Below, one piece after another: positions 658 through 51,799 of a DNA stretch of 64,000 bases. A program made the translations under genes and the position numbers. The stretch comes from Psammoneis japonica (taxonomy: Eukaryota). Each line of letters begins with the position of its first letter. The stretch's first letter is position 1. Location of the stretch: contig QPGO01000016.1 of the NCBI GenBank assembly GCA_008632985.1, positions 468,840-532,839 of the forward strand, given 5' to 3'. The notes beneath the pieces were generated by a model. That model was not told the origin of the DNA and searched no databases. It was given only the letters and a program-made list of their open reading frames with translations.

Positions 658-977
658 GTACGGTACGTGGGTGCCTGACGCAGTCTCAAGTGACGGGTGA
701 AGGACAGCCCGCATATGACAAACACACCTACCTACCTCTAGTAGAGGGACCTACTTGCCTACGGTACTGTATCTATCTATCGCGCGTGTCGCGCACGCGC
801 GCGAGTTGGGCAAGCAGTATGGTAGTAGGGCCCTAAGTACCATAGAGCAGGATCTTCTTGGAGATCGCGACATAAGATCTGGTTTTTTCTTTTTTGTTGA
901 TGCTCAGCTTCTCCAGCTTGTTGCGCTCAGCTTCCAGGCAGCAACAACAATCCTATCTCCAACACACGACAAAGATT

Positions 978-1869
978 ATGAATTCCTTTCTCTTAGCCTG
1001 CGCCTTCTTGGTCTCCAGTAGCCAGGCATTTGCGCCACCGTCCCCTTTTTTCGCACGCCATGTGGAAACTTCCTTTGCAGGCAATCTGCAACAACCACCA
1101 CGTCAGGCGACAGAGTTGAACATGATTGGTGGCATGTTTCAGGGTTTGTTTGGTCAGAAATCCGCCGAAATTACTGATACGGTTTACTTTGATGTAAGCA
1201 TTGGGGGGGAACCCGCGGGACGGGTTGAAATGGGTCTCTACGGCGAGGTTGTTCCAAAAACGGCTGAGAACTTTAAGCAACTCTGCACCGGGGAACCGGG
1301 CTTTGGATACAAGGGTTCCATCTTTCATCGCGTTATACCCGGATTTATGTGCCAGGTACGTGTGTTGGGATGTATTTGTTAAGCTTGTTGTACTATGGTT
1401 GCTAACTATTTTTCTGTTTTGGCAGGGCGGGGATTTTACCAGCTTCAATGGCACAGGAGGGAAATCAATTTACGGTCGCACCTTTCCTGACGAGAACTTT
1501 GAGATTGTTCATGGAGGTCCTGGAACTTTGAGCATGGCGAACGCAGGTCCCGATACGAATGGTATGTGATTGTCGTCCTGAAGTCCCAGTAGTCGCGAAG
1601 TACCAATGGTTGTACGATCGAGCTCGTTTCTTTGTGCTACCTTGGAATGAAAGTCGTTGTAAAACTCAGACAGCATTTTGTCCCATGATTTGCCACCAGG
1701 ATGGCAGTTCTTCATCTGCACAGAAGAAACTCCGTGGCTAAACGGAAAGCACACGGTGTTTGGCAAGGTCACAAAAGGATTGGATATCGTTCGCAAGATT
1801 GAAGGCGTTGGATCTCAGAGTGGAGCTCCGCGAGAAGAGGTGAAAATTACCGACTGTGGTGCCTTGTAA
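978..1869 (+). CDS. Cyclophilin-type peptidyl-prolyl isomerase, plastid-targeted; introns 1356-1425 and 1562-1699
   Basis: Motifs [65 protein letters not shown] introns restore frame; signal peptide ending SQA-FAP. Confidence 0.95.
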
Positions 1870-2206
1870 GAAGAATGCTCTTTCAATTGTGCTACCATGA
1901 TACGCTAGAATTTCTCCAAGTTGCGGGATTCACTCCGATATGTGTGAGCTAACTTCATTCTGCTAATAAGTTATAAACGCACTTTAAGCAAGCAAAATCA
2001 TTAGATGGACGACGTATGCTATGTTTAGCACTAGCGATGTTGGACCTTGAAAGCAATACCAAGTCTGCTTCAGGTGTGACAACAGGTAGTATTCGCACAT
2101 GATGTTTATCGTTACAAGCGTAAATCGCCGAACGAGATTCTGACTCCAACGCCGTTCATATCAGGCCTTACGGTGGAGGAAAACACGTCTGTCGGTGAGC
2201 ATGGCT

Positions 2207-2860
2207 TTACTCCTCCTTTTTGCTGCTCTTCTTGCGTTTCTTTTTCTTCTTCTTATCGGAGCTTTTCTTTCTCTTCTTGTTGTTCTTTGTATCAGCTTCT
2301 TCACCACTGCTTGTATTCCCGCTTTTACTTTCGTCGGATTCTAACGTTGTCAGAATTGTTTTAGCTTCTCCTCGGCCATTCCATTCCAATCGAGCCTTGG
2401 CCTCTTCCTCGTCATTATCAGTCACGTTGGATTCGGTTCTTGCCCATTTACCCGTCGCACGACGTTGAGCCCTCATTCCAAATCGCGCACCACCCGTCGC
2501 TTCAAACAATTCTTCATCGGTATAGTGCCTTTTTTTCGAGTTCTTCTTGCTCTTCTTCTTACCCTTGGAAAGCTTTGCCAGTGTATCACCCATGCTGTGT
2601 TTCCACCACGATGCTTCGTGTTTTATATCCTCTATTTGTTGCTGCCCATGACCCAATCCCACATTGTCTTCTCGTCGTTTGACTTTAATATGAGAAGAAC
2701 GACCCTGGCGTTTCTTTCCCAATCCTTCACCCTCGGTCCATCCCATGAGCTTGAGTTGCCGCTGCGCAAAGTCACTGGTTGGTGCAGAGACTTGCTCATT
2801 CAGCGATGCTCCCAACTTTGCTCGCAGTTTCGAGCCTGCCAAGGATGTTGCGTAAGCCAT
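2207..2860 (-). CDS. G-patch domain protein (PINX1/GPATCH4-like) with Lys-rich C-terminus
   Basis: FAQRQLKLMGWTEGEGLGKKRQG...GLG G-patch; TDEELFEATGG motif; KKK-rich tail. Confidence 0.9.
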   Translation of the reverse strand: MAYATSLAGSKLRAKLGASLNEQVSAPTSDFAQRQLKLMGWTEGEGLGKKRQGRSSHIKVKRREDNVGLGHGQQQIEDIKHEASWWKHSMGDTLAKLSKGKKKSKKNSKKRHYTDEELFEATGGARFGMRAQRRATGKWARTESNVTDNDEEEAKARLEWNGRGEAKTILTTLESDESKSGNTSSGEEADTKNNKKRKKSSDKKKKKKRKKSSKKEE

Positions 2861-3871
2861 GGTTACTTTTCTAAAAAGGGATCAATATTGGGGTTTCTAT
2901 CAGTGATAACAGGAGGCGTGTCGTCGCTTCTGTTGCGATTGTTCTTTCAAAAGAATACACGGTAGCAGCAACAGGAAGTGAGCGCAGTGACTGATGAACG
3001 AAACCTAGTAGTAGGGCCCTACCACGACGAGAAACGAGAAGAATCGAATCGCGAATCGCGACCCAAAATGTGAACGTGTGGCTGTCGCAGCGGTTTCTCA
3101 ACCAGCACTGAAGTTGCGTAGAATTCCACAACGGCACAATACTGCATCATACGGTACAGTACATAGCATGCATGCTTGGCTAGAGTAGAGTAGAGAGCTC
3201 TCGAGAGTAGAGATACAGTAGTAGATATCGCTCTCTACTACTCTCTCTAGAGTAGAGAGCTAGTAGCAGTAGCTACGGTATGCTCTATTCTAGCTAGAAG
3301 TAGTACAAAAACCGGTATGCTAGCCCTACCAGAGCTATATTATTGCCGCTGGTAGCTCGGATCGCTGTCACACTCGAGCCACAGTTAGGGTTTTCGAGAT
3401 TCAAGTGTGCTTTTCAGGAAGTTGAAGCAAAAAATGCAAATGAACAATGAAGTTGTGAACCAAGTGAATTGTAAAAGTTTTAGTCGGGGTCGTAGGCTGT
3501 TGTTGTAGAAGTTGCGTTTAAAGGGACCGCTAATGCTAACCTAACATGCCCGGATCCGGCGCCTGAGATGAACGTTTTCTTCAAAATCAACTTTTTAGCC
3601 ATACAGATCGACGTATGTGCAGTAGCTCAGCGCGTCATTAGATTCGAAGAAGGCCTTGGGATATGTATGTATCTGCAACATGCAGAGTTCTCCCGAAAAA
3701 ACGAGTCAGAGTCGCACTGGAAAGTCATCAACATTTATTTTATGCTATAGATTATTGGCTCGTCCTTGGTTGCTGTTGATGGTGTATGCAGAAAATCACC
3801 TACGTTGATGCTCGTTGTGATTTTGATTGGGCGTGACTAGCAATGTCGCAGCTATGATTCTTCGTACGTTC

Positions 3872-4258
3872 TTACTTTTCCCAAAACTTGAAACCAAAGT
3901 AAAAGATTGTAGCCAAAAAGGGTGCCACAAAGCCTCCACCCCAAAATATTGCATTAAACGTGTTTTTCTTGGCTTGAATCTCTTCTGGCGTGGGTGGACG
4001 ACGCTCCTGCAAGCTTAGCGTTTGAGTCGATGAAGACAGGTAATTCTCAATGCCGTTTTGCATTGGTACGGAGCTTGACGTGATGGCAGTAGTAGCAGTC
4101 GTTACTTGCTGATTTACAACAAGAGCCGGAGGAGGAGCGACTGGTGGTGTTACAGCCATGGAAAGAGCCATTGTACTGCGTGCTGACTTGAGTGCCAATG
4201 GCGTAAAGCCAGACGTCACTGCGAGTGTCAGGAATAGGACCAATAGAGACCGAAACAT
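3872..4258 (-). CDS. Small probably plastid-targeted membrane protein of unknown function
   Basis: Signal peptide ending TSG-FTP, Ser/Thr-rich transit-like region, C-terminal hydrophobic helix FWGGGFVAPFLATIFYFGF. Confidence 0.8.
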   Translation of the reverse strand: MFRSLLVLFLTLAVTSGFTPLALKSARSTMALSMAVTPPVAPPPALVVNQQVTTATTAITSSSVPMQNGIENYLSSSTQTLSLQERRPPTPEEIQAKKNTFNAIFWGGGFVAPFLATIFYFGFKFWEK

Positions 4259-4603
4259 GGTTGCGTAAAGGTAATTTCAACAGCAACGGGATCAAGGAAG
4301 GAGTGGTATTGACCGTTTCTTTTATCTATGTAGTTTCACCGATGAAATCACCGCCTCTATGATGTTGATATCAATGCCGTCACTCACCGAGTTGGACTCG
4401 ATCGTCGTGTCAACAAAGAAGGTGGGATGACACAGCAACAACAACTCCCTCCAACAACCTACACGATTTCTACGTAGTTTACGTACTGGAGGGTATCTTT
4501 CCACTTCAGCCAGCTAAGCCAGGAACTGGAATCAGGAATCTGGAAAGTCTTGTTTACTGTGAGTTCCTTGTCTCCGTGTTCAAAGTTTTTGTGCCGTAGT
4601 CTA

Positions 4604-6204
4604 CAGTGCTGTTTGATGCGAGCGACAAATGTCCACGAGGAAACCCCGTGTCATTTGGCTGGTGCAGAAATGGATCATGCATGATGGGCTTTCGGCTTTC
4701 CATCATGCTTTTGTCGTGCTTTCAATTTTCACAGTTCACGAAGCAGCGCACTCTCACCACCCCCCATTTGGCAGGCTGAAAGTGTTTGCTTGTGTGCAAA
4801 ACAACCCGATGCAACAACTCTGTGTCATCGTCTCACGAGAGAGAGGGGCATGACAAGGCAGGCTTTGCCACTGTCCTCATTTTCTTCCATGCACAGTGTT
4901 GCAGTGCCAGAGAAAGGGCATGTGCAGCACTTTTTGGGGGGCGGTTGTTGAGAGTGAAACGTTTTTCTCACAGGGGAGATCACACGTGTTTTTGGGGCAC
5001 CGAGTGAAAATGGCATCACACAGTTGGCGCTGACAAAAAAAGTTTTTTGGTGATGGGTGGTGCCTGCGAAAAATGAATCCTCCTTTCTCTCACTTCAAAA
5101 AAGAGTGACAAGGTCATTTTTTGAAGCTCAGCCACCAGCCAACACCGCCAGCGGTGCAAGCAAAGAGCCGCACATTTGTCAGCAGCCTCAGTGCTGAGAA
5201 AGAAAGATGGCCCTCCATTGACAAACAAAGGGGCTCTTTTGACAACTCAACTTCTGGGCAAAAAGCCATGCTGCCACAAAAAGAAAGGAAAGAGAAAATG
5301 AAGAACACAAGAATCCTGGAAACGTTGAGCACTCAGACTGCCAGCTTTTTTGCAAAACAAATTTTGAGCACTCATGTTGCAGAGGATTCATTTGAAAAGA
5401 GACAAGCGGGTGGTGCACAAGGATGTGTCAGATCTCAGCCCTGGCCACTGCATTGCCCATGACGTTTGAGGATGGGGTGCCTTGCAAAGATTTCTTCACA
5501 GATTTTGATGATGGCCTTTCAAGTGGGCCTTCTTGCAGCGTTGACATGCTTCTTGAGCAAGGGGAAAAGCAAGACGTGTCAGTCACCTCCACTCCCCAGG
5601 AGCACAGCAGCGCACTCCAGTGGCACAATGCTGCACAACTCTGTGTTTTCTTCTGCAATGGCATTGAAGGAAAGCGGCATCAGGAGGTTGGTGCACTCCT
5701 CCTGGTTCTCTGGTTTGTTGTGTGCCAAATGCAACAAGTTGTGTGCTTCTGACATTTTTGACTGGAAGGCACAAAAGATGGTGAAAAAGGCACAGAGCAC
5801 TCCCAAAAAGACTGATCAAAGGATCTGCTCAGCTGAAAGAGCAACAAAAAGCTGCGCTTGAAGAACAAGAGCTTTGCAACAAAGTTGTGCCTGCTGCGCA
5901 CTGCCAGGCTCTCCAAAAAAGAAAGTTTTGAAGGAGAAGCTGGATCACACTCACCCTTTCAATTGCCAGGCTTTGGGTGATTTGACCAACATCAATTGGG
6001 AAGCTGTCACCAAGGTGCACCTCTGCCTGTGAGCAACAAAGATGTGATGAGTTGGAAAGTGAGAAAAGAAGCAGAGTGGAGAAAGAAGGAGGTGGGGAGG
6101 CAGAGAGCGGCTGTGGCAGGCTGCTGAGACCCCCAATTTGCAAAGAGATGAGGGCCACATCATGTGTCAGCAGACAATGACACAGCATGGAACAGGACTC
6201 TCTC
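4604..6204. mobile_element. Decayed unclassified repeat/transposon-like block, TpA-free
   Basis: No TA dinucleotide found by eye in 1.6 kb; CA/TG-rich; broken Tyr-free ORFs; same signature as the copia relic. Element class not recognised. Confidence 0.55.
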
Positions 6205-6514
6205 TAGAGCAACGACATGATCGTTTGTTGTCATGCTGCTGCAGCAGCGCCGCTGCTTCCATTATTTTGTGATTTGCTTTCGCTGCGCTGTCGATGTTGC
6301 CCAGTTGGGCCACCGTGAGAATCCGCGGGTGATGATCGATGATTGTTTTCACGAACCATTGCGGCGGTTGGATTAGTCTTTGTGGGACACACTTTGAAGC
6401 CGTTTATGGCTGCGACTGATCATTTCTATCCTTGCTATTGGACATCTCATCCCACTTTGTGCAGCTGGTTCGGCAAACTTACAGCGTGTTGAGAAGCAGA
6501 ACATACCTTATACA

Positions 6515-8109
6515 ATGTCGCATGAAAATGCCAATACACTGTGTCTCTATGACGACACGATTGGTTTGGAGTGCCTAAGGGAAAAGCACGAGACACTTGC
6601 ATGGAAATTCGAAGAGAATATTGAATCGCGACTGGACGACAAGGTCAAGGACGCACCCATGGTCCACATTCATGATCGTCGTGATGCGCAGTGGCTTCAT
6701 TGCCGCAAACCTGCCCTTCCTCCACAAACCATTCTGGGGGTCTGGGAAGAATTGAGTGACCCCAATCAAGACGAAGAAGAAGAAGAAGTTTCGCCAATTG
6801 ACAGTCCTTCTTTAGTTCTTGATATCTATCAGAGCTCCGTCAGTGAATCAAATGGCAATCACAAAAGGTGTACTTGTGTGGCACCGCATTCTGAATGGAC
6901 CCGACAGCAGCTATTACCTTCCTACAAAGACGACTGTAAGGACACTTTTCATATCAAGTGGGTAGACATTCGCTCATGGCAAAAACATCAGGGAAAAGAG
7001 AAAATTCGCTCGAGACCCCAGCCAGCCTCTGCCACTTTACCAGGTCGCTGCTGAATTGCTCGCACTCTGCGTCTCCGTGGGCCGAATCCTCCGCAGAACA
7101 GCAAGATCCCGACGTTGTGGCGCTCGTCATAATGCGTCGATATCCTCAGCACTGACAACGTTTCGTATTGGAGACGCTTCACCGTCCTATTTTTTGCATT
7201 CTACAAGCCAATTGGCACTCGTTCCAAATAATGTCAATTGGATGCTGTCTGAGAATGATGCACCGGCACAGAAGGCGTGGATACAGAAGAGGCGATGCTG
7301 TTGGTTTTTCGTCGTATCCTCCTCGAGATCACTTGTCAGTACAACATCCCCTCGACAAGGAATCGTTTCAGAGAAGCAGTCAAGATGCTGTTGTCCCGCA
7401 CGGATGTCTGTGGGAGACCTATCAAGTAAAGGTCGAGGGTGTCGACGATGAAGAAAGAGCGAGAAACATTTTACCGCTTGTTGGGACCACCGTACATTTC
7501 GCATCATCAAGATTATCCCAGACTGCTCGAGCCACTCCTCGCCAAGGCTAACTTTGAAGCCATTCGTTCGGAAGCCATGTCTATTCCTCAGTGGACGGCA
7601 TGGCCTGAAAAGGTCCATTACGCGTCGGAAGATGGACCGGCCACGTGGACCGTGTTTCCCCTATGCCATTGCTTTCCTGCAGATATTGTCCAGAATCGAA
7701 AGTGGATCGAAAGTACGTGTGCCTTTGTACCAAAAACTACAGCTTTGTTGAAGAACGTCCTTGGTACAACCTTGCGGACAGCTCTTTTTCACGCTTGAAT
7801 CCACAAGCAACCTTGGAGCCTCACACTGGTTGGAAAGACTTGGCCAACCACGTCTATCGAGTCCACTTGCCCTTGGTGGTACCACCAGGTGGATTATGTG
7901 GGACTTGGGTTGATGGGTGCGTCGAAACGCATGAGGAGCGGCGCCTTGTTTGCTTTGACGATGCCAAGGTTCATCGTGCCTTCAACTACTCCTCACAAGA
8001 TCGTGTTGTGCTGATTCTGGACTTGGCAAGACCGGAAACCCTACCGGCAGGAACTGCCACGGGTGGCCATACCGATGAATTGGATAGGTTTATTCAACAG
8101 CTGACGTAA
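6515..8109 (+). CDS. Aspartyl/asparaginyl beta-hydroxylase-domain (2OG-Fe(II) dioxygenase) protein, with several frameshifts
   Basis: C-terminal WTVFPLCHCFP...ALFSRLNPQATLEPHTGW..L..HVYRVHLPLVVP...FDDAKVHRAFNYS..DRVVLILDL; reading frame switches near 7030-7470 and 7790. Confidence 0.8.
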
Positions 8110-8204
8110 TTTAGAAGTCCTTAGAATGAAGTGCAAGGCGCATAGAAAGAAGACACAGTTAAAATTCAGGATTTTTATACCTCTGCTGCTACTTCCGTTC
8201 TCTG

Positions 8205-9650
8205 CTACACATGTGGGGGGACCAGCACTTTGTGTTTTATGCCCTGACTAGATGAAAAGACCAAATTGTGTCAAACACGTGGATCGTGCAGGAGAAACTC
8301 CATTGCCAATTGAGTGTCAAATGCGCCATTGAGTTGACTCATGCCTCCAATTTTGGCAAAGGCAACATCATAATTATGAACAAGATCATGAAAAGCATGG
8401 AATCTCACAGTGACTCAATGTGCACTTCAGAAAGGCACAAACAAACATTGGGTCCCAGTTTGACACAATCAGACACATGTGCGCAAGTCAGCTTCCATGC
8501 TTGAACAAGTCTGCTCAAAGTCTTGGATCACATTTGTGAAGAGATGAAGTTTTTGCAGTCAAAGGAACACCTGACACCACCTCACAAGAACAACCACCAA
8601 AAAACAGTGCCACACACAGATGTGAGGCCCCATCTGGCCAGTGCAGCCACCCACTCCTGCATTTGATTTGGGTCACTTGGCTGTTTGAGGCACCAGCCCA
8701 CAGCCGCACAACTTGGTTTGAGAGACAAGCTCTTCAGCACAGAGATTGGCTGTGCAGGGTGGGGTGCACCTCTTCTTGGAGAAAAAGTGAAGAACAAGGA
8801 GAAGAGAGCAAGCTTGAACAGCCCTGAGCTGAGCTGTGTGCAACTCTCTCAAACAACAGCCTGCGCCAAGTGCAGCTGATGGTGTGCTGCTGTTTTGTTT
8901 TGCTCCCCTTGTTTCACTTGTGAGTGGCGCACTGAGATTGCCAGTCATCTCAAAATCTTGAAATTTTGGTGGCTGCAAATCATGGTGGTGGGTGTCTGCA
9001 ATGTGCTGCCAGGTGCTGATTCACACCACAGAGGCAGCAACAGCATGCTCGCATGGCCTCATTCAGTGTGGCAGCTCTGAGAGCGGCTCACCTGCAGCGC
9101 ATTTGCAAGCTTGGGGCCCAGGGGGGAGTGGGGGACAGTTTGTTCTGCCTAGAGAGATGGGTTATGAGCTGCCACTGGTGCAGTGCTAAGCAGTGCACCA
9201 GCTTGTTGAAAGAGCGGAGGCGGTGGCGGACTGCGCGCTTGCTGGTGTGGACGACTCACCTGGCGATGTGGGCAGTGTTGGCAACGGCAAGTCATCTGTG
9301 CTCTGGTCATGTGGCAAGGAAAGTGGGCTGCAGAGCAAGATCACCAAAAACTGCCCCCAGCTTTTTTGTCTGGGAAATTTTCCCATTTTGTTGCAAAGCC
9401 CTCCAAGGCTCGTGAGCCAGCTCACACTTGCTTGTGGTCAGAGCGCTGCCCCCCCCCAACAAGTTTGCTGCAGCAGAAAACACAAGCACCCCCTCACAAA
9501 GCAGCATGTGCTTTGCTCTTTTGGCAGAGGTGTGTTTTCAAATTGTCTGGTCAAAATTCTTTTTGTGCGTCACAACTGATTCAAGTGCACTGCATGCAAT
9601 CATCAAAATAAATCTTTGTGCTGACACGTCGTCAGTCGTCAGTCTGCACC
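8205..9650. mobile_element. Decayed unclassified repeat/transposon-like block, TpA/CpG-depleted
   Basis: Only a handful of TA and CG in 1.45 kb, CA/TG excess, no coherent ORF. Confidence 0.5.
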
Positions 9651-9888
9651 CTTGAAGATGTCTTCGAACCAATGACCCAAGTCCAACCACGAGACATTTT
9701 CGTTTATTAAAATATCTTCATTAACAAAGCTTTTAGTTATTATTGAAGACTGAATTTAGAGTGCCCCTCACAAAGTTTTTTGTCTTTCTGGTCGTGAAAT
9801 CCACGAGCATCTGCGACGTGTAAGTAACAAACGACAATTCTGCACATCTCTCCCTTTTCAATAAGAGAGTGGCAAAGTGTGAAGAAGG

Positions 9889-12712
9889 ATGAAGTCCGTG
9901 CTGCTCGATCACGTGTGCCATGGAGCACTGTTTTCTCTCTTCTTCATTGGCAGTCTAGATCTTGTCGTCGAGGCGGGGAACTTGCGCCACGCTGGCCCAA
10001 GTGCCACTGTGAAAGATGAGGATTCTCGACGCAACTTGGTGGAGGGGCGATCTCCACTGTGGGATACCGACGGTGAACCATGGGTTTCCAGCAGTGGCGG
10101 CTCCACTTTGCTTGGCAACTTCACTGATGTTGGTTACATGTCTGGAAATGTGCCCATCCCAAGTGCACAAGATTGGCCTATTGGTGTCTACATTACCGAC
10201 TTTGGGGCTATTGCCGATGACTTGCTCTCGGATGCCCAGGCCTTGCGAGATGCCGTGGCGGCTTGTCCCGATAACATGCCGTTTTCATTCCCAATGGACG
10301 TTATATTATCGACGAAGCCATTGTGTTTGACTCGACATTCAACAACTTTGTCATTCGAGGAGAAAGCCGTGATGGAGCAATTCTTTACTTCCCCAAGCAC
10401 ATGCACGAGATTGAACAAGTAGCCGAGTCCAGCACCTATTTCATTTCTTTCGAAGACGGTACCAACCGCGGTATGGAGGACTTGTCTTTGGTACTTCGTG
10501 ACGAGACAAAGGCCACTGGCTACTTTTAGGTGAGACATATGTTTACTTTTAGCTTGAGCAATGATGCTTCGCTCTACAAGATCTTGTCCTCACTCGTTGA
10601 GTTTCTACTTATATCGCAGACCCATACAAGACGAAACAGATGGAACCGCATTGGTTCAATTCCGGAGAGAACATGATCAGCATTGGTAATAACACCGACA
10701 GTTGGCTCCGCAACTTGTACTTCAAGAACGCGAATACTGCCATTCGTGTGGTTGGCATTTTCACACAACGGATTTCCATTACCGACATTGTGAACGATAA
10801 ATTCATGTTTCGTACCAATGTGGGCATGGGCAAAGACGGCCATGTGGGTATTGCGAGCAATGCGAACCATGTTTTGATTCACAATGTTCTAAATACGGGT
10901 GTGATGCACCACGAACTCGATCTCAACGGCGCCAAAAACACAGTCTACTCGCGTATCTCGGGCCCGAACTTGACCCCCGACTTTCACGCTCAAGGCAATA
11001 GGTACAACTTGTACACCGAGTTTGATTTTGGAGGCGGCAAACCAGTTGGCGTGATCGTGACAACACGAACGGGGGGCGCAAGAATCTACAGTGGGAAACA
11101 TTCTGGGGTATGAAAAGCCGTGAAGACTTTAATTTCTTGGATCCTGCCGACCAGTGCGTCATGGTTGGAATTCCTAATGACGCCAACACAAACATTGGAG
11201 TTGACTACCATCACGAAGCGATTGATCCGGATGCTTTGGTACCACCAAACATTTACCTTGCTCAAATGCAGGAAACCACGGGCAAAGTGCTTCCGCCGGA
11301 CGTGACCCTGACCGTCCCAAGTAGGCCCCAAGAATACGAAGACAAAGCTGTGATTTTGCTCCCAACGAGGATGCCTACGTTGGAGTAAGATTGGCGGATC
11401 GGGACACGAACTACGGGTTTTCTGATCGGAGTCGTTGTGAGGAGGAATGCACAACAAGGCTATGTGAAATTTGACTTGAGCAAGTTGGTCGGAAGCTACG
11501 GAAAAATCTACCACGCCAAACTCAAATTGGCGGTGAAATTCTCCTCAAGGATAATTTCCGTCTCGCAATAAGGAACATGACTGATACCTCGTGGTCGGAA
11601 GCAACGTTGACCTACAATAACCGTCCGTCAAGTGACTCCGTCATTGCCGATTTGCAATTATTCAAAGCGGACATACCAGAATATAGTTACATCGACGTGG
11701 ATATCACTGAAAATGTGAACAATGTTCTTGCTGCCGGAGTTACTTCCATGTCTCTTCACTTTGAAGGAGTTGATAAAGATCGAGCCCTTGCAATCAATCC
11801 CGCGATTCTGCCAATCCAGTGCACTTGGTCGCTTATCTCGACAGGAGCTGGATCCTGTGCAGGAAGTATTGCAACAGTTTACTCCAACAGATGACGGGTA
11901 CACGGAGAAACTTGTCGCCGGGCAAAACACCACCTATGGATCTGAAACTAGGGTCCGCTGAGACAGAATCGGCACCAGGGCTTCATGAAGTTCGATCTGA
12001 CCGGTTTAGGCAGCAACATGGTGAACCCCGTCATCACCAGCGCAAAGCTTCATGCTTATACGACGATTAATTTGAAAACCGCTTTCAATCTCCTAATCAA
12101 GAACGTGACGGATAACTCTTGGAGTGAAGATACCTTGACTTTTACCAACCAACCCGATGCTTACGATCTTGTTGCCGAAACGTATTTTGACAAAACCATT
12201 CTGCCTACCTGGACCTGGACCTACATTGATCTTACTGATCACGTCCAATGCATCAACAGTCTTGGCCAGTCGGTGTTTTCACTTCACTTCTCAGGTGGAG
12301 GGCCGCCCACCCCACCAAAGATGCAGGTCTCGCCTTTAGGAGTACGGAAGATTCTCCCAATGAACCCTATTTGGAAATCTCCCTGTCTGATGATGTTCCG
12401 GCTCCGCCTTCGATCCCCACCGGCCCCGATCAGCTGACCGGTCTACAAGCAACTGCCGGAACAAGCAGCGTGACTCTAGACTGGAATGTCGGAGTTGCTG
12501 CATTGGCCCCCATCACCTACAATGTATACAGATACGATACCTCGGGATACGTCGTCAAGGCAATGGGTCTAATTACACCCACCTACACAGACTACCGAGT
12601 GGCCACAGACAGCAACAATGTAGTGTTCCCACTGACATATGTGGTGACAGCTGTGGATGTTGCTGGCGACGAATCCATTTTCAGTGAAAATGTGACTGTG
12701 TCGCTTTTGTAG
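9889..12712 (+). CDS. Secreted pectin-lyase-fold (beta-helix) protein with two DNRLRE/CBM96-like domains and a C-terminal FN3-like domain; multiply frameshifted (pseudogene or assembly errors); intron ~10530-10619
   Basis: ITDFGAIADD...AL..AV...VFIPNGRY, VIRGESRDGAILYF; EDAYV..TNYG, YVKFDLS, SWSEATLTYNNRP and second copy MKFDLTG, SWSEDTLTFTNQP; VTLDW..YNVYR..YVVTAVDVAGDES. Confidence 0.75.
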
Positions 12713-22408: not shown

Positions 22409-22924
22409 CGTTCTCTCTCTCTCTTAAAAAAAAAAAACACAACTAAGCCGGTTTTCAGTAGCTTTTCCAATTGTGAATGGTAATATTATGGAACACCCCT
22501 TACAAAGAGAGTCTCAATTACACCGTTGCTGTTATTATTGTCGACAGCTTCGCTTCGATATTATTGTGCCCGTGGTCTTGGAGGGAGTTTTGCTGCGAAG
22601 AACAATGAGACGTTGATGAAGTCATCTGATTTGCTCATCTTTATGTCTGTATGTTGCATTAGAGAAATTGCGAGGGAAAACTTATAGACACCTACAAAGT
22701 TAAAGATTTTCATAAGAATGAAGTTACTCAGAAAATGTAGAAGTGGTTATCGTGAACAAAATTTCCAAATCCAATGAATGAGTAGAAATGTACGGTGATT
22801 GTACCGGTCCAACGGAAGGAATCACTCAGTACAAAATTTGTGTAGAAACGTGTTGTACAGACAGACGATTTTTGGAGCCAAAGCCGGCCGTTTCGCGCGC
22901 TTTTTTCGCATCCGCAAAACACGG

Positions 22925-23267
22925 CCCGCCGACAGAACGACATGGCGACCATGGCGACGGACTCTTCTCAAGAACACAAATATGAGGCAATTCTCTACGA
23001 TTGTAATATTGTCAATGTGGTGGAAGGAACCATCATGCCCAACAAGTGCATTGTGATTGGCAGAAATGGAAAAATTGAGCACATTTGCGACACGGACGAA
23101 CGGGACATGTTTCTGGAACAACTCTGCCACGCACTGTGCTGGATTGCAAGAATGCATACGTCATGCCCGGTCTGATTGATTGTCATGTTCATGCCACGGC
23201 CTTTACGGCAAGTTTTGCATTGTTGGCCAAGACGGCTCCATCGAACGTGATGGCTCGCCGGCTTTGA
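22925..23267 (+). pseudogene. Truncated, frameshifted duplicate of the 5' end of the amidohydrolase gene at 25009
   Basis: Aligns to 24988-25318 at roughly 90% identity, 2-bp insertion near 23123, ends at the TpA-free block. Confidence 0.9.
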
Positions 23268-24860
23268 TCCTGGACCAAGAGCGATGAGCGGCACATGTCT
23301 CGCCATGACGGAAGCTCCAGCGCATTGCCAACAATGTGCAGCAGATGTTGCTGGCAAGCATGAGATGCCAAGAGTTGAGCTTCATCCTTGTGGCCAACCC
23401 GGGAAATGAGGGCAACCCGTCTGTGTCTCCCCCTTGCCCTGACCCCGAACCGGGCTGGAGACAGACGGGTGAGACGAAGTTGGGGTCGGGTTTTGTTTGG
23501 GGCTGGCCAAGTTCAAAATGACCAAATTTGCAGCAGGAGCCTGAGAGCCTTCTCAAAGCCCTTTTGCGTGCCTGAAGTGACCAAGGATGCCAGCGACATG
23601 ACCCTCATTTTCCTGCCATCAAGCTTCTTCCTGAGATGAAGTTCTTTTCTTGGCGTCACTCTGCACAGAAACACATGAACCCAGTTGTCTCTGTGGTCAC
23701 AAAGTTGTCAACACAACCAGGCTCTCAATTGCCCCCCCCCCCTGTCAGGAGCTTTTTTGTGCACAGTTGCTGCACTCTTTTTGCACAAAACTGGAAGCTG
23801 AGTCATCCCCATTTTCCTCAACTGATTTTTGGGGTTCTGTTGTCAATGAAATCCATCACAGGGACAGGAAAGTTGGCAGCGCACATCTCTCTCCTTGGAG
23901 CCACACAAAACAGACCTCTCTGCAGCACGCGCACCTTTCCTCATGCGCCAAGACAACAGACTCAACTTGCAAAAATGCAGGCTATCCTCACCCTGTGACT
24001 GTCAATCACCATCAACTCCAAATCATCCAAAGAAACACCTTTTTTCAGCTGTGAACTTCCTCAAAAAAGCCAGCAGCATTGCTGGCCTCTTTTTCTCTGC
24101 ATGCCCTCATTGAGGCGCTTGTCACTGTCAGATGGCAGCCATTGCAAAGGTTGAGAAGTGGGCCCACATGCGCCTTGATTTTTCCTGGCTTGCTTGGAAT
24201 CATGAGCACCCAGATGGCTGCAAATGAAATGTTTTTGGACAGCTCATCTTTCCACTTGTTGAGGTTGCTTGTGCGCACACGGCACATGGACCACACCAAG
24301 GTGGCTGTGGCGACGTGCAAGAGACGTTTTGACTGTGTGTTCCCTCCAATGTCTTCTTGAAAATGTCGTCATTGACAGCGTTCCAGTCAAGATTGGTGGC
24401 AGCAGCATGGGTTCCTTTGCTGAGGATGTCACTTTCCTTTGGCCCAGCCCAGCATCTCGCTGCCAGGCCCAGGGGTGCAGTGTGACATGCTTGTGTTGGT
24501 TTCCTTCACACCAGCCTTTGAATTGTTCAAAAGCATGAAAAAGTCCATCCACATGCACTGGGCCATCCTCAAATCGGTGGCTTCCTCTGAGTTTGACAAA
24601 ACAACCAATTGAGCCATTGACCACATTGTTCAAAGTCTTTGGTGTGGACAAACAGCAGCAAAAAGCCCAAGAACTTTGTGGGCATGTCCTTCTCCTCTCT
24701 GATGAGAATGGCAAATGTGACAATGTTCATCATTGAAAATTCAAATTTCAATCTCAGCTCCATGTCACACACACACAACGAGACACAGCCGTCCAGCGAA
24801 GCGTCCAATTTTGCGGGAAGGAACGCCTGAAAGAGGACTCAGGGGAGGGGAACAAAAACG
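23268..24860. mobile_element. Decayed unclassified insertion, TpA-depleted, between the two amidohydrolase 5' copies
   Basis: One TA found (23983) in ~1.6 kb; broken minus-strand ORFs; structured end at 23409-23490. Confidence 0.55.
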
Positions 24861-25008
24861 AATGGAATGCGGTAATGTACGACAATTATTATTAGGCGGG
24901 GGTGCTTTTATCCCCATGACGACCCCGCCCCGATCGATCGACGACGCACGACGACGACTCGCTAGACTCTGATAACACAACACACAACCCGCCGACAGAA
25001 CAGCGACC

Positions 25009-26288
25009 ATGGCGACGGACTCTTCTCAACAAGCGCACAAATATGAGGCAATTCTCTATGATTGTAATATTGTCAATGTGGCGGAAGGAAACATCATTCC
25101 CAAAAAGTGCATTGTGATTGGTGTAGATGGAAAAATTGAGCACATTTGCGACTCGGACGAAAGAGACATGTTTCTGGAACAACTGCCCCGTATTGTGATG
25201 GATTGCAAGAATGCCTACGTCATGCCCGGTCTAATTGATTGTCATGTTCATGTCACGGCCTTTACGGCAAGTTTTGCGTTATTGGCCAAGACGGCTCCGT
25301 CATACGTGACGGCTCGTGCGATTGAAACATTGAAAGAAATGTTGAATCGAGGCTTTACCACGGTTCGTGATGCCGGTGGAGCCGATCATGGATTGGCAAG
25401 AGCTGTCGAAGAAGGACTCGTGGTGGGACCGAGATTGTTGTTTTGTGGCAAAGCTTTGAGTCAGACGGGTGGTCATGGTGACATGCGACTTGCCGGAGAC
25501 GATTCTTCTGTGGAATGTTGCGGATGCATTGCGTTGGGCCGTGTGTGTGACGGCGATGCACAAGTACGAAAGGCAGCTCGTGATGAAATACGCAAGGGTG
25601 CGACTCACATCAAGGTCATGGCGGGAGGAGGAGTCAGTTCTCCCACGGATCGAATCACATCGACACAATTTTCTGTAGAGGAATTGACAGCCATTGTACA
25701 AGAAGCAACGGCGGCCAATGTGTACGTCATGGCCATGCCTATACGCCTCGTGCAATAATCAATGCAACTCGGGCGGGTGTCAAGAGTATTGAACACGGAA
25801 ACTTGTTGGACGAGGAATCGGCCGAAATCATGGCTCAACACGAAACCTATCTTGTGCCTACACTCGCAACGTATGATGTTCTTGCACAAGAAGGATTAAA
25901 AGAGGGTCTCACGCAAGACAATGTCAACAAGGTTGCCGCCGTACGAGACGCGGGGAAACGATCGATTGGTATTGCACAACAGGCCGGTATAGTCATGTGT
26001 TTTGGAACCGACTGATTGGCTGGCATGCAACGACATCAATTGAGAGGGTTTCGCCTGTTGGAGGAAGCGGGCATGTCGGCGCCAGACGTTCTTCGGACAG
26101 CCACTTGCAATGCCGCGCGATTATTGAATATGGAGGGGGAGATTGGAGCCAATGCAGAAGGAGCCAATGCAGACATTGTTGTTTTGGCCAAGAATCCACT
26201 CTTGTCGATGGAGGTATTTGATGATTGGAAGGAGAACTGTGTCGCAATACTAAAGGGCGGCCGAATACATTACTCACAAAGCGATTGA
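25009..26288 (+). CDS. Metal-dependent amidohydrolase (Xaa-Pro dipeptidase-like subgroup); 1-bp frameshift ~25735 and in-frame TGA 26013-26015
   Basis: MPGLIDCHVH, GFTTVRDAGG, LSQTGGHGD, IKVMAGGGVSSP, (AHAY), SIEHGN, GTD, ADIVVL..NPL. Confidence 0.9.
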
Positions 26289-36503: not shown

Positions 36504-36619
36504 ATACTGCTGGCACACTACTAAAAGAAATAGTCTCTCCTAATGCGATGAGCACGAGAAAACATGAGTGGAAAAGGGGGAATCCGGTGGCTTCAGCACG
36601 TTACTCGTAGAATCCCAAT

Positions 36620-37600
36620 CCCGATGCAAGCTCTGCAGCACCCTTGGAACAAGACAACCCCGCCTTTGTGAATTTCGTCAACAAGAACGAGGCCATGTGG
36701 GAAAAGCCAAGAACAGTGGATGGTGGCACTGCATTCTTTGCTCCCAATGACAAGGCATTTGCAGAGTTTGCTGGGACAGAAGAATGATGGGAACACGTGC
36801 ACAAATGCACACTGTGAGTGGCCACAAACCAAAACCCTGTTTTTCAACATTTCTTCTACACCAATTTTGTGCAAATGCAACATGCACAATCTCCTGCAGA
36901 AGTGCATGAGAAGTTTGTGTGTGGCGCACAAGCATTTGGTGATCCTCATGTGTCAAAAACAAGTGAGTGGGCACAAAATGATCAAAGCATGCACCCCCTG
37001 TCTGTGCATCCCCGAAGAATGCAAGTGCAAAAAGTTTGTGGAGGCCATGCCACTGTGCAAGAGTTCATGGAGTGCAGGCACAAGAATTTTGCAGAGAGTT
37101 CCAGAAAACCTGCTCAGGAAACTTCGCAATCTCCCCAGGAATGCAAGTGCAAGAGAAGTTTGTGAGGTGTGGACAGAAAGCCGCATGAGAAAGTGGAAGG
37201 GTCTCTGTTGGCTGAAGTTTGTGCTGGGGTGGGGGGAGCACCGTCTCTGCATTGCATTTTTGAACAACTTTGGACATCCACCACATTCTTGGCACTCCTC
37301 AAATGAGCCCCAAACCAGCCCAGTCATCCTGAAAATGACAACCTGCAGACATCCTGCACAAACTTGGCATCAAAACAAGCTCCCCATTTGCAACCTCTCT
37401 TTTGCAGACAGCAACCCCAGCAAAGCTGAGTGCTGTGCCAAGAACACCATGTCACCATCAAGCAACTAAAATGTTGAAACGTGTGGGTGATCAAATTGAA
37501 AAAATGCAGCGCAGCAATGCACCAGGGCAACATCTGTTGTGAGTGGGTCATTGTTGGTGGTGCACTTTTGTGCAACTCTTCTCTGTCCCCACCAGCTGAG
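36620..37600 (+). mobile_element. Decayed TpA/CpG-depleted block containing a broken ORF of unknown family
   Basis: Long frame interrupted only by TGA stops; almost no TA. Confidence 0.45.
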
Positions 37601-37609
37601 GAGAATGCT

Positions 37610-38397
37610 GCACTTGGCACCTTTGAAAATCTAGCACCTTTCAAAAAAAATGATCAAAAAGTCAGCACCACCTTTGTTCATTTCCACCACTTTTTAAAAA
37701 TGATCTAAAAAACCCCCAGCACCTTTCTTGAAAACACAGCACCTCCTTGCAAGTCTGCAAACGCAGTCATTTTTTCCACATGTGTTTGTTGAAAACACCT
37801 GAGTTGAGCCATGGTTTTTGGCTTTGCTGAGCAGTGCATCATTTGTGGGAAAAACACCCATGAGCACTTGCACTCGCTGTGTGAACACTGCCGAGACAAT
37901 GACACAAATGCCATTTGTTGAGTGCAGCAATGCAGGCAGTCTGGCACCTGAGTCTCTTTGCAGTTTGTCAACCATGGTTCATGAGAAAAATTCTGCAATC
38001 AGTGTTGGCAATGTTGTGCTGAAGTGTTTTTGTTGTTTCGCAATGTGGCGGAGGGGCCCCGCACTTGTTGCTCACTGCAAAATGCACGGCTCGCACCCTG
38101 AGAGGGGCCTGCTGTCTGCACAGGAAGAACGACCCACCCACTGTGAACAACAACATGACAATGGCACAAATGCTGTTCATCGAATGCAGGAGAGGTGGCC
38201 CAATGTCTAAGTTGCAACCACCTCCGCTCTGTGGGCACCACCATCAACACATTGTGCGTGGCCAGCAGCATCTTCCCTCTCATGGGCGGATCGCTCTCAG
38301 TTTTTTCTGTTGGGGTGCTGAGCACAGGCGATGGCCTCGGAATTTGTCACAATGCAGAATTGTTAAAGGTGCTGGAAATTCTAAAAGGTGCCAGTGC
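37610..38397. mobile_element. Non-autonomous DNA-transposon-like element with ~35-bp degenerate TIRs
   Basis: 37610 GCACTTGGCACCTTTGAAAATCTAGCACCTTTCAA vs reverse complement of 38363-38397 GCACTGGCACCTTTTAGAATTTCCAGCACCTTTAA; reiterated AGCACCTTT subterminal motif. Confidence 0.65.
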
Positions 38398-38723: not shown

Positions 38724-39746
38724 ATGGCCCCTCAAGATGCCGTACTTTACAAGGGGGAGATTGCAAGGCACTTTGTCTTTGTGCACATACCGAAATCGGG
38801 TGGATCTGCCTTTTTGGAGGAGTCATCTCGACACATGCCGGTTGGGTATTCCATAAGGGGGAACGGCGAGCGATCCATGTACAAAACCAGTGGCTCTCGG
38901 CAAGACATGGTGACGTTGTTACGAGAACCAACCCATCACGTTGTATCGCAATTCATGATGTGCAAATATTCGGAATGGGGTCGTTCTAAGACTGCTGCCT
39001 ACAGAAACTTTCCGGGACAATGGACGACAGACAATTCAACCAATAACACGAATCATTTTGCGGGCCTGGACGAGTGGGTGCAGCACTTTGTCCGACAAGA
39101 ACATGAAGCATCGAATGAAACATTGGGGGGAGACAAGGCATTTTCGTGCTACAATCCTTGGAATATGCAAACAAGACATTTTGCAGTACCCGAAAAGATG
39201 CGAAACCCATTGGCGGCAAATCGTATTCCACCAATAGACGTGGCAAAGAAAAACCTGGATGAGATTGGGTTCGTAGGAATTGCAGAACACTTTGATGCAA
39301 GCATGTGCTTGTTTGAGTTTCACACATTGGGGTACTTAACGCAGAACTGCCAGTGTCATGAGGAAACAAAACAACTCGGCCGACAAAACAATGGCGTCAA
39401 GATTGTCCATGATGTGCCGCGTTACAACGTGACAGAGAGCTTGTCCAGTGACGCGAGGCTTCTGATTCAAAAGCTGGTTCAGGTCGACAATGTCTTGTAC
39501 GAATACGCTATGGAAAGATTCAAGAATGATCTGAGACATGTAGCGGACGTGACGGGCGTGGACTTGTCATGTGGACGTTTGTCTCTCCAGGACAATGTCG
39601 TGGTGGCTGAACGCTTTCACGAGGAGTCTAATTGTGAAAGTCCGGCTTTGGTTTTCCCTCTTATTCAGTGGATTGCCACAGCAATCATGATCCTATTCAT
39701 TGGAGCCCGGTTATTCTGCAGACGAAAACTAAGGCGGCGGCGATAG
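38724..39746 (+). CDS. Sulfotransferase-family protein with C-terminal TM helix (true start uncertain)
   Basis: 5'-PSB loop FVHIPKSGGS, 3'-PB VTLLREP..HVVSQF, NMQTR, FVGIAEHFDASMCLF, D..LY. Confidence 0.88.
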   Translation: MAPQDAVLYKGEIARHFVFVHIPKSGGSAFLEESSRHMPVGYSIRGNGERSMYKTSGSRQDMVTLLREPTHHVVSQFMMCKYSEWGRSKTAAYRNFPGQWTTDNSTNNTNHFAGLDEWVQHFVRQEHEASNETLGGDKAFSCYNPWNMQTRHFAVPEKMRNPLAANRIPPIDVAKKNLDEIGFVGIAEHFDASMCLFEFHTLGYLTQNCQCHEETKQLGRQNNGVKIVHDVPRYNVTESLSSDARLLIQKLVQVDNVLYEYAMERFKNDLRHVADVTGVDLSCGRLSLQDNVVVAERFHEESNCESPALVFPLIQWIATAIMILFIGARLFCRRKLRRRR

Positions 39747-40262: not shown

Positions 40263-41258
40263 CTAAAGTGAGTTGGAGCCTGCCGTGGTATTCACCACAC
40301 TTGGAGCAACAGAACCAGGAACAACAGATGGAGCCGCAGTGGGAGAGAGACTAAAAGAAGGCGCAGCAGTGACATCTGCTGGTGATTCCGTTACGACGCC
40401 CAATGCTACACCTGCACCAAGGGCGACACACACAACCAGCGCTGCAATTCCAATGGCAATTACAATGAGAAGGAGTCGCTTTCGCTTCCCCTTTCGACTG
40501 TATCTGGACAAGCCAGATGGTGTTTTTTCTGTTCGCAGCTGCTGCACCCAATCGCCAATTTCCTGCAGGTCCTGCTCGTTCAGAAGGACCTCTAGAATCC
40601 TCTCTTTGTCCTGAGGCTTGGAAGCCTCAGCATCCACACAGCTTGTTCGCAACTGAGAAAAGTCGTCTGGGCCTGTCACATGTGTGTTGGCCGGCATTAA
40701 TCCATATTTCCGAGCATAATACAACTCACACACGCACCAGATTCTGCTGTAAAGATCCTTTACCGAGTTGCGAACTACCACAAATTTGGAAGCATCCATG
40801 AGTGCCTTGACAAATGGCGCGTCGGTGAGCGGGGCATTCTTCTGTCCCACCTGTGTTTCAACTGTTTCTTCGTCGCCTTGAAGCAGTGCGAATGCACAAA
40901 TCCACAGGTTTGGTTTTTGCATTGTTGTTTCAAACACCTCCCCGATCGACTTTGCAAATTCTCGAAATGGCTCGTCCCAACAGTGGGTGATGAATGCATC
41001 CACCATGAGTCCATTCTTGTTGAGGTGCAGAGCATAAGGTCTTTTTGTTTCTTGGCAGACAGGCACAATAACGTGTTTCGTGATGTCATGCATTGTCATT
41101 TGCGCGTATTTCTTGCCAAATTTTTTGGACGCATCGTCATTAAAGTCCATGAACTGCTCGAACGAAATCGAACACATGCTTGGACTAATCGAACACATGC
41201 TTGGACTCATCTCCTCATCAGGAGTGTCGTTGCGCAAAAATTTTCCTTCTGTTGTCAT
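40263..41258 (-). CDS. HET-like domain membrane protein, C-terminus apparently truncated
   Basis: FITHCWDEPF, LWICAFALLQ, YSRIWCVCELYYA, AEASKPQDKERIL; then basic stop-transfer, TM helix and TAAPS stalk. Confidence 0.7.
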   Translation of the reverse strand: MTTEGKFLRNDTPDEEMSPSMCSISPSMCSISFEQFMDFNDDASKKFGKKYAQMTMHDITKHVIVPVCQETKRPYALHLNKNGLMVDAFITHCWDEPFREFAKSIGEVFETTMQKPNLWICAFALLQGDEETVETQVGQKNAPLTDAPFVKALMDASKFVVVRNSVKDLYSRIWCVCELYYARKYGLMPANTHVTGPDDFSQLRTSCVDAEASKPQDKERILEVLLNEQDLQEIGDWVQQLRTEKTPSGLSRYSRKGKRKRLLLIVIAIGIAALVVCVALGAGVALGVVTESPADVTAAPSFSLSPTAAPSVVPGSVAPSVVNTTAGSNSL

Positions 41259-41779
41259 CTCTCTTTGCAATGCCTACGAGAGAGCCTGTTCTGTGCAAAT
41301 GCGGTCACTTGCAACGACGCCATTGGCTACGATTTGTTAACACTGTCGATTAGCGTTCTCAAATAATAGACTTCGCATCCCTTTCCCGTAGGTTATGAGC
41401 CTAAGAGTCACTCTTGGGTTTGTTGACCAATGTTCCAGTTTTTGACTGCATCAAAGAGACCGCCATTGTGGTGGAATTGAGAAGAGTCTGACTGTTGGAT
41501 CAATGGCATCTGGCCATCCTCATCCTGCAATGGTGTGACAATGGGACATGACAGAGAACACCAACAAACCACAATGAGTGTTCTCTCACATTTGCGCTTG
41601 GCTCGGTTTCCTCAAAAAACAACGAGATGATTCTCAAATCTTCTCACTTGTTTCAGGCACTGAGCTCCAGTGAGTTGGTGGTTGCAATGGTCTCATCTTC
41701 AACATGGTCCTCCATGCCTCATGCAGCCTCAGCATGCATTTTGGCACAGGTTGCAACACACTCCTGCAAGGCCAGTCTC

Positions 41780-44700: not shown

Positions 44701-45650
44701 AGGGATGCCACATGACAGACAGTTTTGCCCATGAGCGCTCCTGTGCCAAGTCCAAAGATGTGTTGGGCATTGGCCATGTTGTGTCGGGTGACTGGGAAAT
44801 TGGCAGTTGGCTCTTGTAAACGAGGCACTTTGCTTTTCACGGGAATGGACAGACTGCCACTGCTCTAAGACAGAATGAAGAACAGAGCTGGTTGGCCAGT
44901 CTACGGTGCAATCCTCGCAGGAACAAAAGCATGAAACATGTGCGGCAAGTTCAAGGTGCAAGTGCACAAACAAGAGGTGTCCCATTTTTGGCATGTTGGC
45001 AATCTCAGTCATGGGAATTTTGCCAGCATCTGTCATCATTTCTTGATTGCCAAGATTTCCTGTTGCATTTTTCTTTGCACCACACAGGCAACGAGACGTC
45101 CTTCATCAAATCTGCCTTTTCATTCACTCTAAGTCATAGAACCTCTGCGGGCTTGCTGAGGTTCTCAATGGCCACCAGCAGCAGAAACTTGAGATGACAT
45201 GCATTTTCTGTTGACAGAGTTACAGCATTGGCTGACAATTTGAACACGGCAACCTCAAATTCTTTCCAATTCGATTTCACTGCTGAGGACAACATGTCGA
45301 ATGACACCACAGATTTCAGCATCTGAACTTTTGACATGTCCCTCTTGCATTTCAACTGAATCTCCACAATTGGATCCTTTTTTTGTTGCGCCACTGCAAT
45401 GTCAATCAAAAGGCAGATTTTGGGAGCTGGAGCGCTTCCACATCTTCCTCCGTGGCAGCGAGAAGCGATGCTTTGGTGTCGCAGCCCGCTGTCAGCAGCT
45501 TCCCAGCAACTTCTTCCTTTTTCCTCCCTGCGCCGATTGATGAGAGAAAGTCAGAAAGAGCAGCCTCATCCCATTCATCACTCTGAATGCCGGGGACAGG
45601 CAGAGGGGCAGGCAAAGCCACAGCCATTGTTCATCCACCCGCATGATGCC
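41780..45650 (-). mobile_element. Decayed Ty1/copia (CoDi-like) LTR retrotransposon internal region: gag-like, integrase, RT, RNase H
   Basis: Minus strand remnants IDVAFI and VADIEQHMRTVKDQV (integrase), GFKVNPC..C..NKT and HVDDPKLSH (RT), WQADAFFTV, KQKL..SSTKAKL..DDSM, HINVKC (RNase H) in copia order; LTRs not identified. Confidence 0.88.
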
Positions 45651-45804
45651 AAAAACCAAAATGAAAATCGCTCTTCACTCTGCCTGCTCTTCACGCACAC
45701 GCGTCCACGCATCTGTCCATTGCATTGGAAGACTCCAGATTTCTTTGTGACCACTTTTTCTCTCGGTTTGAGACCTTTGTTGTGACTCTGTTTGATTCGT
45801 TTTA

Positions 45805-46165: not shown

Positions 46166-46262
46166 CAGGAGACATGGAGCACAAGGCTTTTTTGATTTTC
46201 TTGGCAAAGAGGAGGGTGTGCAACAGCTTTTGCTCATCCCAAGGCAATTGCAGACCTTTCCT

Positions 46263-51780: not shown

Positions 51781-51799
51781 TGAAGTGCTGTGCTTGTGA

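Follow-up and report, generated by a model that had tools for sequence, protein, structure and literature searches.

The closest described counterpart of the DNA analysed here comes from mutation-accumulation work on the chlorarachniophyte Bigelowiella natans, in which, according to the accessible part of the preprint, two integrated viral regions mutate ~1000-fold faster than the remainder of the genome (Mettrop et al., bioRxiv 10.64898/2026.01.13.699255). The changes in them are nearly all A>G/T>C, all of them on TpA and with no G:C>A:T component, and the rate of TpA>TpG/CpA conversion is ~6e-7 per site per generation (10.64898/2026.01.13.699255). The B. natans genome contains 124 clusters of TpA-poor, CpA+TpG-rich 1-kb windows, delimited by a Rho TpA of at most 0.43 together with a Rho CpA+TpG of at least 1.52, and an ADAT2-like deaminase acting on DNA adenine is put forward by the authors of the study; the accessible text mentions neither CpG nor diatoms (10.64898/2026.01.13.699255). 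This preprint was the only relevant report returned by a literature search on TpA erasure in diatoms or elsewhere. Here, we describe a tract of 1601 bases without a single TA dinucleotide, at positions 4604–6204 of a 64,000-nucleotide stretch of contig QPGO01000016.1 (assembly GCA_008632985.1; the whole stretch is referred to as the window), together with further TA-poor patches of the same window that share its composition.

The window resembles B. natans in that TpA is lost and CpA+TpG gained, on both strands and in kilobase-scale clusters, and the changes appear to be A:T>G:C transitions at TpA on both strands, as in that alga. The published thresholds are passed by 19 of the 64 1-kb windows, of which 13 are consecutive (41001–53001) and form a cluster in the published sense; the tract alone contributes one qualifying 1-kb window (5001–6000, with values of 0.00 and 1.62) and falls short of the length that the published definition of a cluster requires. 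Unlike the chlorarachniophyte, the host here is probably a diatom, judging by the relatives of a RED-like protein encoded in the window. Erasure is saturated (0.27% TA), whereas the accessible part of the preprint gives 3.3% for the B. natans giant-virus region. The targets here are non-coding DNA devoid of viral or transposon domains, whereas those reported for B. natans are viral inserts, and CpG is lost too in patches, which is not a topic of the accessible text (10.64898/2026.01.13.699255).

Other known systems match the window in part. Like fungal repeat-induced point mutation (RIP), the process seen here is a regional, strand-symmetric transition hypermutation that degrades selected DNA, and repeat copies diverge by context-specific transitions. 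By contrast, RIP converts CpA to TpA, so that TpA goes up and GC goes down, whereas the patches, with a TpA observed/expected ratio (o/e) of 0.04 and a GC content of 0.49, have moved in the opposite direction; moreover, unlike RIP targets, the tract is single-copy within the window, and there is no evident dependence on duplication. Methylation-driven CpG decay, as it occurs in vertebrates, plants, and basidiomycete and diatom transposons, is matched by the CG o/e of 0.19 and the gain of TpG/CpA, but it accounts for the CG arm alone, being unable to remove TpA. Deamination of the ADAR/ADAT type is the work of RNA enzymes, unlike the DNA change here. In tRNA, A34 is naturally preceded by U33. 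U or T is the preferred 5' neighbour of the adenine targeted by ADAR, and DNA is a reported substrate of no more than a few ADAT2 proteins, according to work cited in the accessible part of the preprint (10.64898/2026.01.13.699255).

Absence of TpA from the tract

4604–6204, no strand assigned: TA-free tract, non-coding, between two divergently oriented open reading frames (ORFs)

A sequence-only reading of this DNA had claimed that TA is absent throughout 4604–6204 while a few dozen CG remain. Exact counting bears out both statements, with TA 0, CG 30, CA 167 and TG 159 in a tract composed of A 449, C 361, G 422 and T 369. Over 5000 mononucleotide shuffles the expectation was 103.6 ± 7.6 for TA (minimum 75) and 95.0 ± 7.5 for CG (minimum 70), so that TA lies far under the null and a near-expected count is ruled out; CA and TG are up ~1.6-fold. 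The neighbouring TA steps are at 4602–4603 on the left and 6205–6206 on the right, leaving a TA-free gap of 1603 bases. This is the longest such gap in the window, followed by gaps of 1020, 980 and 890 bases; the whole window contains 1850 TA in 64,000 bases. When the non-patch DNA of the window served to train a first-order Markov null, the longest TA-free gap averaged 203 bases and was at most 306 in 100 simulations of 64 kb; with 0.0396 TA per base, the density outside the patches, the probability of finding no TA in 1601 bases is ~3e-28. The TA depletion of the tract is confirmed and highly significant.

The tract was also compared with genomic reads (run X1, possibly the assembly's own data) that had been assembled as k-mers of 31-letter words. 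An X1 contig of 6432 nt, with a word depth of 59.8, covers 834–7266 including the tract, and 14 of its letters differ from the window; a second X1 contig, with a depth of 32.3, covers 7786–10176, which includes another TA-poor patch, and 0 letters differ. As genomic contigs at ~60x and ~32x thus reproduce two patches, the tract is not an assembly artefact. Eight of the differences from the first contig fall in the tract, three of these eight at TA/CG<->CA/TG sites (a single contig). The sole TA of that contig within the tract is at 5468, where the window has TG, and CG/CA differences lie at 5540 and 5559. A clustered difference is present at 5517–5519, where the window reads TTT and the contig CCC.

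Composition of the TA-poor patches

The window contains ~7 TA-poor patches, 18.5 kb together. Apart from the tract, they include the following, none with an assigned strand:

8376–9608: second patch, with TA-free runs at 8376–9149 and 9188–9608, downstream of an Asp/Arg-hydroxylase-like ORF
23205–24872: third patch, with 1 TA, lying between the two copies of a duplicated 340-base segment from the 5' end of an amidohydrolase gene
36609–38207: fourth patch, with runs at 36609–37466 and 37707–38207
41403–54118: large 12.7-kb patch, with TA and CG both near zero

At a resolution of 1 kb, 19 of 64 windows combine a TA o/e ≤0.26 with a CA/TG o/e ≥1.52, and within the large patch the values are 0.02–0.20 for TA, 0.02–0.53 for CG and 1.5–2.2 for CA/TG. 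For 300-bp windows, a patch was defined by TA o/e <0.15 and CA+TG o/e >1.5. By this definition 52 of 213 windows are patch-like (56 have TA o/e <0.15, four of them with CA+TG ≤1.5), compared with 2 of 1982 in a control of 607 kb from other eukaryotic metagenome contigs (80 RED-homolog loci).

The composition of the patches (18,539 bases) was compared with that of the remaining 45,461 bases of the window. TA makes up 0.27% of dinucleotides in the patches versus 3.95% outside, and CG 1.15% versus 5.46% (o/e 0.19 versus 0.98). Conversely, CA amounts to 11.68% in the patches versus 7.34% outside and TG to 10.96% versus 7.40%, or 22.6% versus 14.7% for CA+TG together. The sum of all pyrimidine–purine (YR) steps (TA+CG+CA+TG) is nevertheless 24.06% in the patches versus 24.14% in normal DNA; equal sums are expected if TA and CG moved to CA/TG, since transitions preserve the purine/pyrimidine pattern. 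The patches look like ordinary genome DNA in which TA and CG steps have been shifted to CA/TG by transitions. When only TA>TG/CA and CG>TG/CA changes were simulated on the normal DNA of the window, CA/TG o/e reached 1.84–1.85, close to the observed 1.81, and simulated and observed shifts of the remaining 12 dinucleotides correlated with r 0.76. GC is 0.49 in the patches versus 0.47 in normal DNA. The strands are affected alike, with CA 2164 versus TG 2032 in the patches and local asymmetry mostly within ±0.1.

Two haplotypes, at ~30x each, are visible in places in X1. Between 9854 and 10046 their divergence is for the most part of an ordinary kind; it includes a single CA/TG double change, one TA>CA and one CG>TG. 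An alternative X1 contig over 9666–10176 differs from the window by 56 letters and 25 gaps, and leaves the window to the left of 9666, beside the patch at 8376–9608.

In-place conversion in repeats and a duplicated gene fragment

48727–50980, no strand assigned: 191-base tandem array of ~12 copies with 80% matches, inside the large patch
42349–43303, no strand assigned: 1-kb dispersed repeat, paired with 46234–47234
22920–23257, plus strand: pseudo-copy of the amidohydrolase gene 5' end, paralog of 24983–25316 by alignment

Repeats inside the large patch allow copies of the same sequence to be compared. The 191-base array does not match any RNA family, and its columns split between TG and CA among copies (for example 7/5, 4/7 and 8/3). 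Over 66 copy pairs, CA<->TG accounts for 241 of 701 adjacent double differences, the next type for 37; in the dispersed pair (46234/42349) the corresponding numbers are 34 of 102 and 6. Translation into purine/pyrimidine code raises identity from ~80% to ~90% in the array and from 69% to 83% in the dispersed pair, a gain of 10–14 points in repeats. These CA<->TG doubles mark ancestral TA or CG steps that were resolved to TG or CA separately in each copy.

The direction of change is provided by the amidohydrolase gene (24976–25755, Amidohydro_1, E 3.4e-24), the start codon and first ~100 codons of which are present twice as a direct duplication of 340 bases with 88% identity (22920–23257 / 24983–25316). 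Relative to the working gene, the pseudo-copy has TG/CA in place of TA at 3 sites and in place of CG at 4 sites, which gives the direction as TA>TG/CA and CG>CA/TG. The changes cluster in the last 120 bases of the pseudo-copy; no TA occurs past 23204, and TA is gone within ~50 bases of the junction. The pseudo-copy also shows that host DNA adjoining a patch gets drawn in. The duplication that brackets the third patch has the look either of a gene duplicated in part or of an insertion whose target duplication is unusually long. The former presence of TA is directly evident only for this gene fragment of the third patch; for the tract at 4604–6204 the argument is indirect and proceeds by mass balance.

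TA loss compared with CG loss

5171–6204, no strand assigned: core of the tract in which CG is scarce, with 8 in 1034 bases

The sequence-only reading had further held that TpA loss is more complete than CpG loss, that it is not a by-product of CpG decay, and that it acts faster or earlier. The first statement holds for the tract, where 0 of ~104 expected TA but 30 of 95 expected CG are left, and likewise for every patch. The second is correct as well, because CpG decay makes only CA/TG; the two losses belong to opposite mutation classes, A:T>G:C and G:C>A:T.

As to the third, the left part of the tract (4604–5170, 567 bases) keeps 22 CG and is already TA-free, and in 300-bp windows of the tract CG o/e is 0.51 at 4801 and 0.13 at 5701. 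None of the 122 300-bp windows of the whole stretch with a TA o/e ≥0.4 has a CG o/e <0.4, whereas 38 of the 91 TA-low windows keep a CG o/e ≥0.4. Most of these are at patch edges, TA-free but CG-bearing windows being found at the edges 4801, 6001, 23101, 23401, 40801 and 53701, and also at 45001–45900. At this resolution CG is lost only where TA is lost, and never where TA is kept. The boundaries of the TA-free patches are sharp, within ~50 bases. In the left part of the tract the ~22 TA expected would all have been lost, as against no more than about one third of the CG, which suggests a TA:CG loss-rate ratio above ~7, an estimate rather than a measurement that assumes normal starting densities and equal exposure time. 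TA loss always exceeds CG loss, in keeping with a faster or earlier TpA process, but with one haplotype the same pattern is fitted by a process that reaches a few hundred bases further. Taken together, what that reading inferred is largely right.

Surviving CG in the patches favour G+C-rich flanks (SCGS 41.8% versus 18.2%; WCGW 17.8% versus 34.3%), as is expected if deamination needs local melting. Surviving TA are preceded by a pyrimidine in 45 of 50 cases. When they are grouped by the base that follows the A on each strand, 28 are purine/purine, 21 mixed and 0 pyrimidine/pyrimidine (n=49), whereas precursor abundance predicts proportions of 0.23/0.53/0.24 (p 4e-9). The preferred target may be TA with a pyrimidine after it; the same pattern may equally arise from new TA created by C>T at dipyrimidines (YCA>YTA).

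Coding content of the patches and setting in the window

Run X2 is cDNA-like, its contigs skipping GT..AG intervals of 70–255 bases. Ten such spliced-out intervals (1069 bases) have a TA o/e of 0.82 and a CG o/e of 0.97. Introns thus keep TA and CG, so the erasure is not the neutral mutation bias of the genome. Three-base periodicity of purines and pyrimidines in the patches is at the level of shuffled sequence (median 0.67, null 0.72), compared with 2.31 in non-patch DNA (Mann–Whitney p 8e-8). Since transitions cannot erase this periodicity, the patches are neither viral genes nor transposon ORFs nor genes in decay. No RNA gene was revealed in them by Rfam, tRNA or tandem-repeat scans.

The tract forms the middle of a 2.1-kb spacer, in which ~330 and ~190 bases of TA-bearing DNA are left beside the two flanking ORFs:

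3875–4276, minus strand: left flanking ORF of normal composition, 18 TA and 18 CG in 402 bases
6398–7051, plus strand: right flanking ORF of normal composition, 22 TA and 27 CG, with an X2 contig over 6419–7266

No terminal inverted or direct repeats that would mark a mobile element were found at the tract ends, and none of the other patches of the window is related to 4604–6204, even in purine/pyrimidine code. Loose ends of X1 at 4621–4729 are ~35-base matches and were not counted as a repeat family. X2 leaves the bins 4670–6003 and 8672–9338 without cover, a blank that was not used as evidence on expression.

The surrounding sequence is gene-dense eukaryotic DNA with 48% G+C and short GT..AG introns of 70–255 bases. 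Host genes include those for a cyclophilin, a G-patch protein, an Asp/Arg hydroxylase, the amidohydrolase, an aldo-keto reductase and an SDR protein, as well as an ion channel, a RED-like splicing factor, TANGO2 and GDPD. The RED-like protein is weakly conserved, and 10 of its 10 named matches are from diatoms, with 30–37% identity, which places the source probably among diatoms or their close ochrophyte relatives. In a protein atlas, Chlorophyta were the most frequent group for one RED cluster, and a second ORF gave no result. For the TANGO2/NRDE-family gene (60103–61059, minus strand), six relatives with 63–67% identity are followed by bacterial ones (Burkholderiales, Betaproteobacteria) with ~40–45% identity, and bacterial gene transfer is possible. 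A 340-amino-acid ORF at 38724–39746 (plus strand), situated between two patches, has a C-terminal hydrophobic tail and an 'IPKSGGS' motif, which we take to be sulfotransferase-like; no homolog was found at E ≤1e-8 in a search of 5.8 billion proteins, and there was no Pfam match. At 11475–12434 (plus strand), two adjoining ORF pieces carry CBM96 carbohydrate-binding domains (E 7e-10 and 1e-12) and are probably one gene with an intron between them.

Discussion

We consider it probable that the patches result from TpA>TpG/CpA hypermutation of the type seen in B. natans, regional and symmetric between the strands, combined with methylation-type CpG decay in the same silent domain. A regionally targeted transition process would turn each TpA of the tract into TpG or CpA and would act likewise on most CpG, there more slowly or over a slightly smaller footprint. 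The TpA arm would most simply consist of enzymatic deamination, on either strand, of an adenine that follows T (A>I, which is read as G), and the CpG arm of the deamination of 5-methylcytosine (5mC) in CG-methylated silenced DNA, as in diatom transposons. One targeting signal, silent chromatin, would guide both arms, and the end product would be DNA without CpG and without signals that contain TA (TATA, TAA/TAG, TA-target sites). In the diatom P. tricornutum, 5mC is confined to transposons and silent DNA, as stated in the accessible part of the source (PMC12344493), and this distribution offers an ordinary explanation for the CpG arm.

Several results weigh against this interpretation. The GC content of the patches (0.491) exceeds that of the simulation (0.468). 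Six-frame Pfam searches of 41401–54100 and 4500–6300 returned 0 families at E ≤0.1, and hence no viral or transposon domain; with neither such a domain nor fossil coding periodicity, a role in 'defence against foreign DNA' is not supported. No unmutated homologous copy of 4604–6204 was found in the window, and we infer the ancestral TA of the tract. No deaminase gene is present among the 63 ORFs scanned in the window. Finally, TpA is self-complementary, so that A>G on one strand is indistinguishable from T>C on the other and thymine-directed chemistry fits equally.

A wider version of the proposal can be entertained only tentatively, namely that a chromatin-guided 'YR-palindrome eraser' operates in stramenopiles too and is peculiar neither to one chlorarachniophyte nor to viral inserts. 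A single silencing-coupled deamination system would then remove the A at TpA and the C at CpG wherever DNA is silent, non-coding spacers and satellites included. TA with a pyrimidine 3' of the A may be its favoured site, a preference that recalls the U33-A34-C35 context of tRNA adenosine deaminases.

Thymine-directed chemistry, in which enzymatic modification or oxidation of the TpA thymine (for instance to 5-hydroxymethyluracil (5hmU) by a TET/JBP-type enzyme) leads to mispairing or to misrepair as C, seems unlikely as the actual route. The TA>CA/TG changes, the mass balance and the CA<->TG doubles are all equally a T>C signature, TpA being palindromic, and 5hmU of dinoflagellate DNA is enriched at TpA. 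However, neither the enzyme nor the base is in evidence here, and the B. natans precedent cannot separate the two chemistries either.

It is improbable that the DNA arrived already poor in TA and CG, whether as a retro-copy of hyper-edited double-stranded RNA or as a CpG/UpA-suppressed virus, with no process acting on it once in the genome. Suppression of CpG and UpA is known in RNA viruses and cytoplasmic RNAs, according to the accessible part of PMC3829696, and the patches are without detectable relatives in the rest of the window. Against such an import stand the host gene fragment beside a patch, which was converted in place, the tandem copies, in which identical sites went to CA or TG separately, the YR total, which equals that of host DNA to 0.1 percentage point, and the lack of coding periodicity and viral domains in the patches. 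Editing of the ADAR type should also make AA into AG, yet AA o/e is 1.18 in the patches versus 1.16 in normal DNA. A retro-copy of ADAR-hyperedited RNA was rejected on this count, together with the symmetry of CA and TG and the in-place conversion.

Selection is hardly a more credible cause. Near-absolute erasure with boundaries sharp to within ~50 bases would suit functional patches that must lack TA/CG because of a nuclease, a TA-targeting transposase or binding proteins, but the seven patches are of unrelated sequence and alike only in composition, repeat copies within patches diverge freely (20–31%), a dead gene fragment has been drawn into a patch, and selection on ~170 separate sites per kb of non-coding DNA is implausible. 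Miscalling of modified bases as CA/TG by sequencing or assembly can be dismissed almost entirely, even though some long-read base-callers err systematically at methylated motifs: the X1 k-mer contigs match two patches at depths of ~60 and ~32 with 14 and 0 letters off, and such depth in 31-letter words needs accurate reads, which excludes this explanation unless the reads are biased.

The first report of targeted A:T>G:C hypermutation in nuclear DNA dates from 2026 and concerns one alga, in which only viral inserts were affected and saturation was far off. On the favoured interpretation of regional TpA hypermutation with CpG decay in silent DNA, the window would show the end state of this process in an apparently different major lineage, in non-coding DNA and coupled to CpG loss. 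What is new relative to B. natans is that the lineage is probably different, that the erasure is saturated, that its targets are non-coding and without a sign of foreign origin, and that CpG is lost too. A TA clock that is faster than the CG clock would provide a natural dating scale. Should it be confirmed across the genome, the process would have a greater age or a wider distribution than has been assumed, tracking silent chromatin rather than foreignness. It would also leave a signature for which genomes can easily be scanned, namely TA-free, CG-poor and CA/TG-rich patches with an unchanged purine/pyrimidine pattern, and this signature could help to find the responsible enzyme by phylogenetic profiling.

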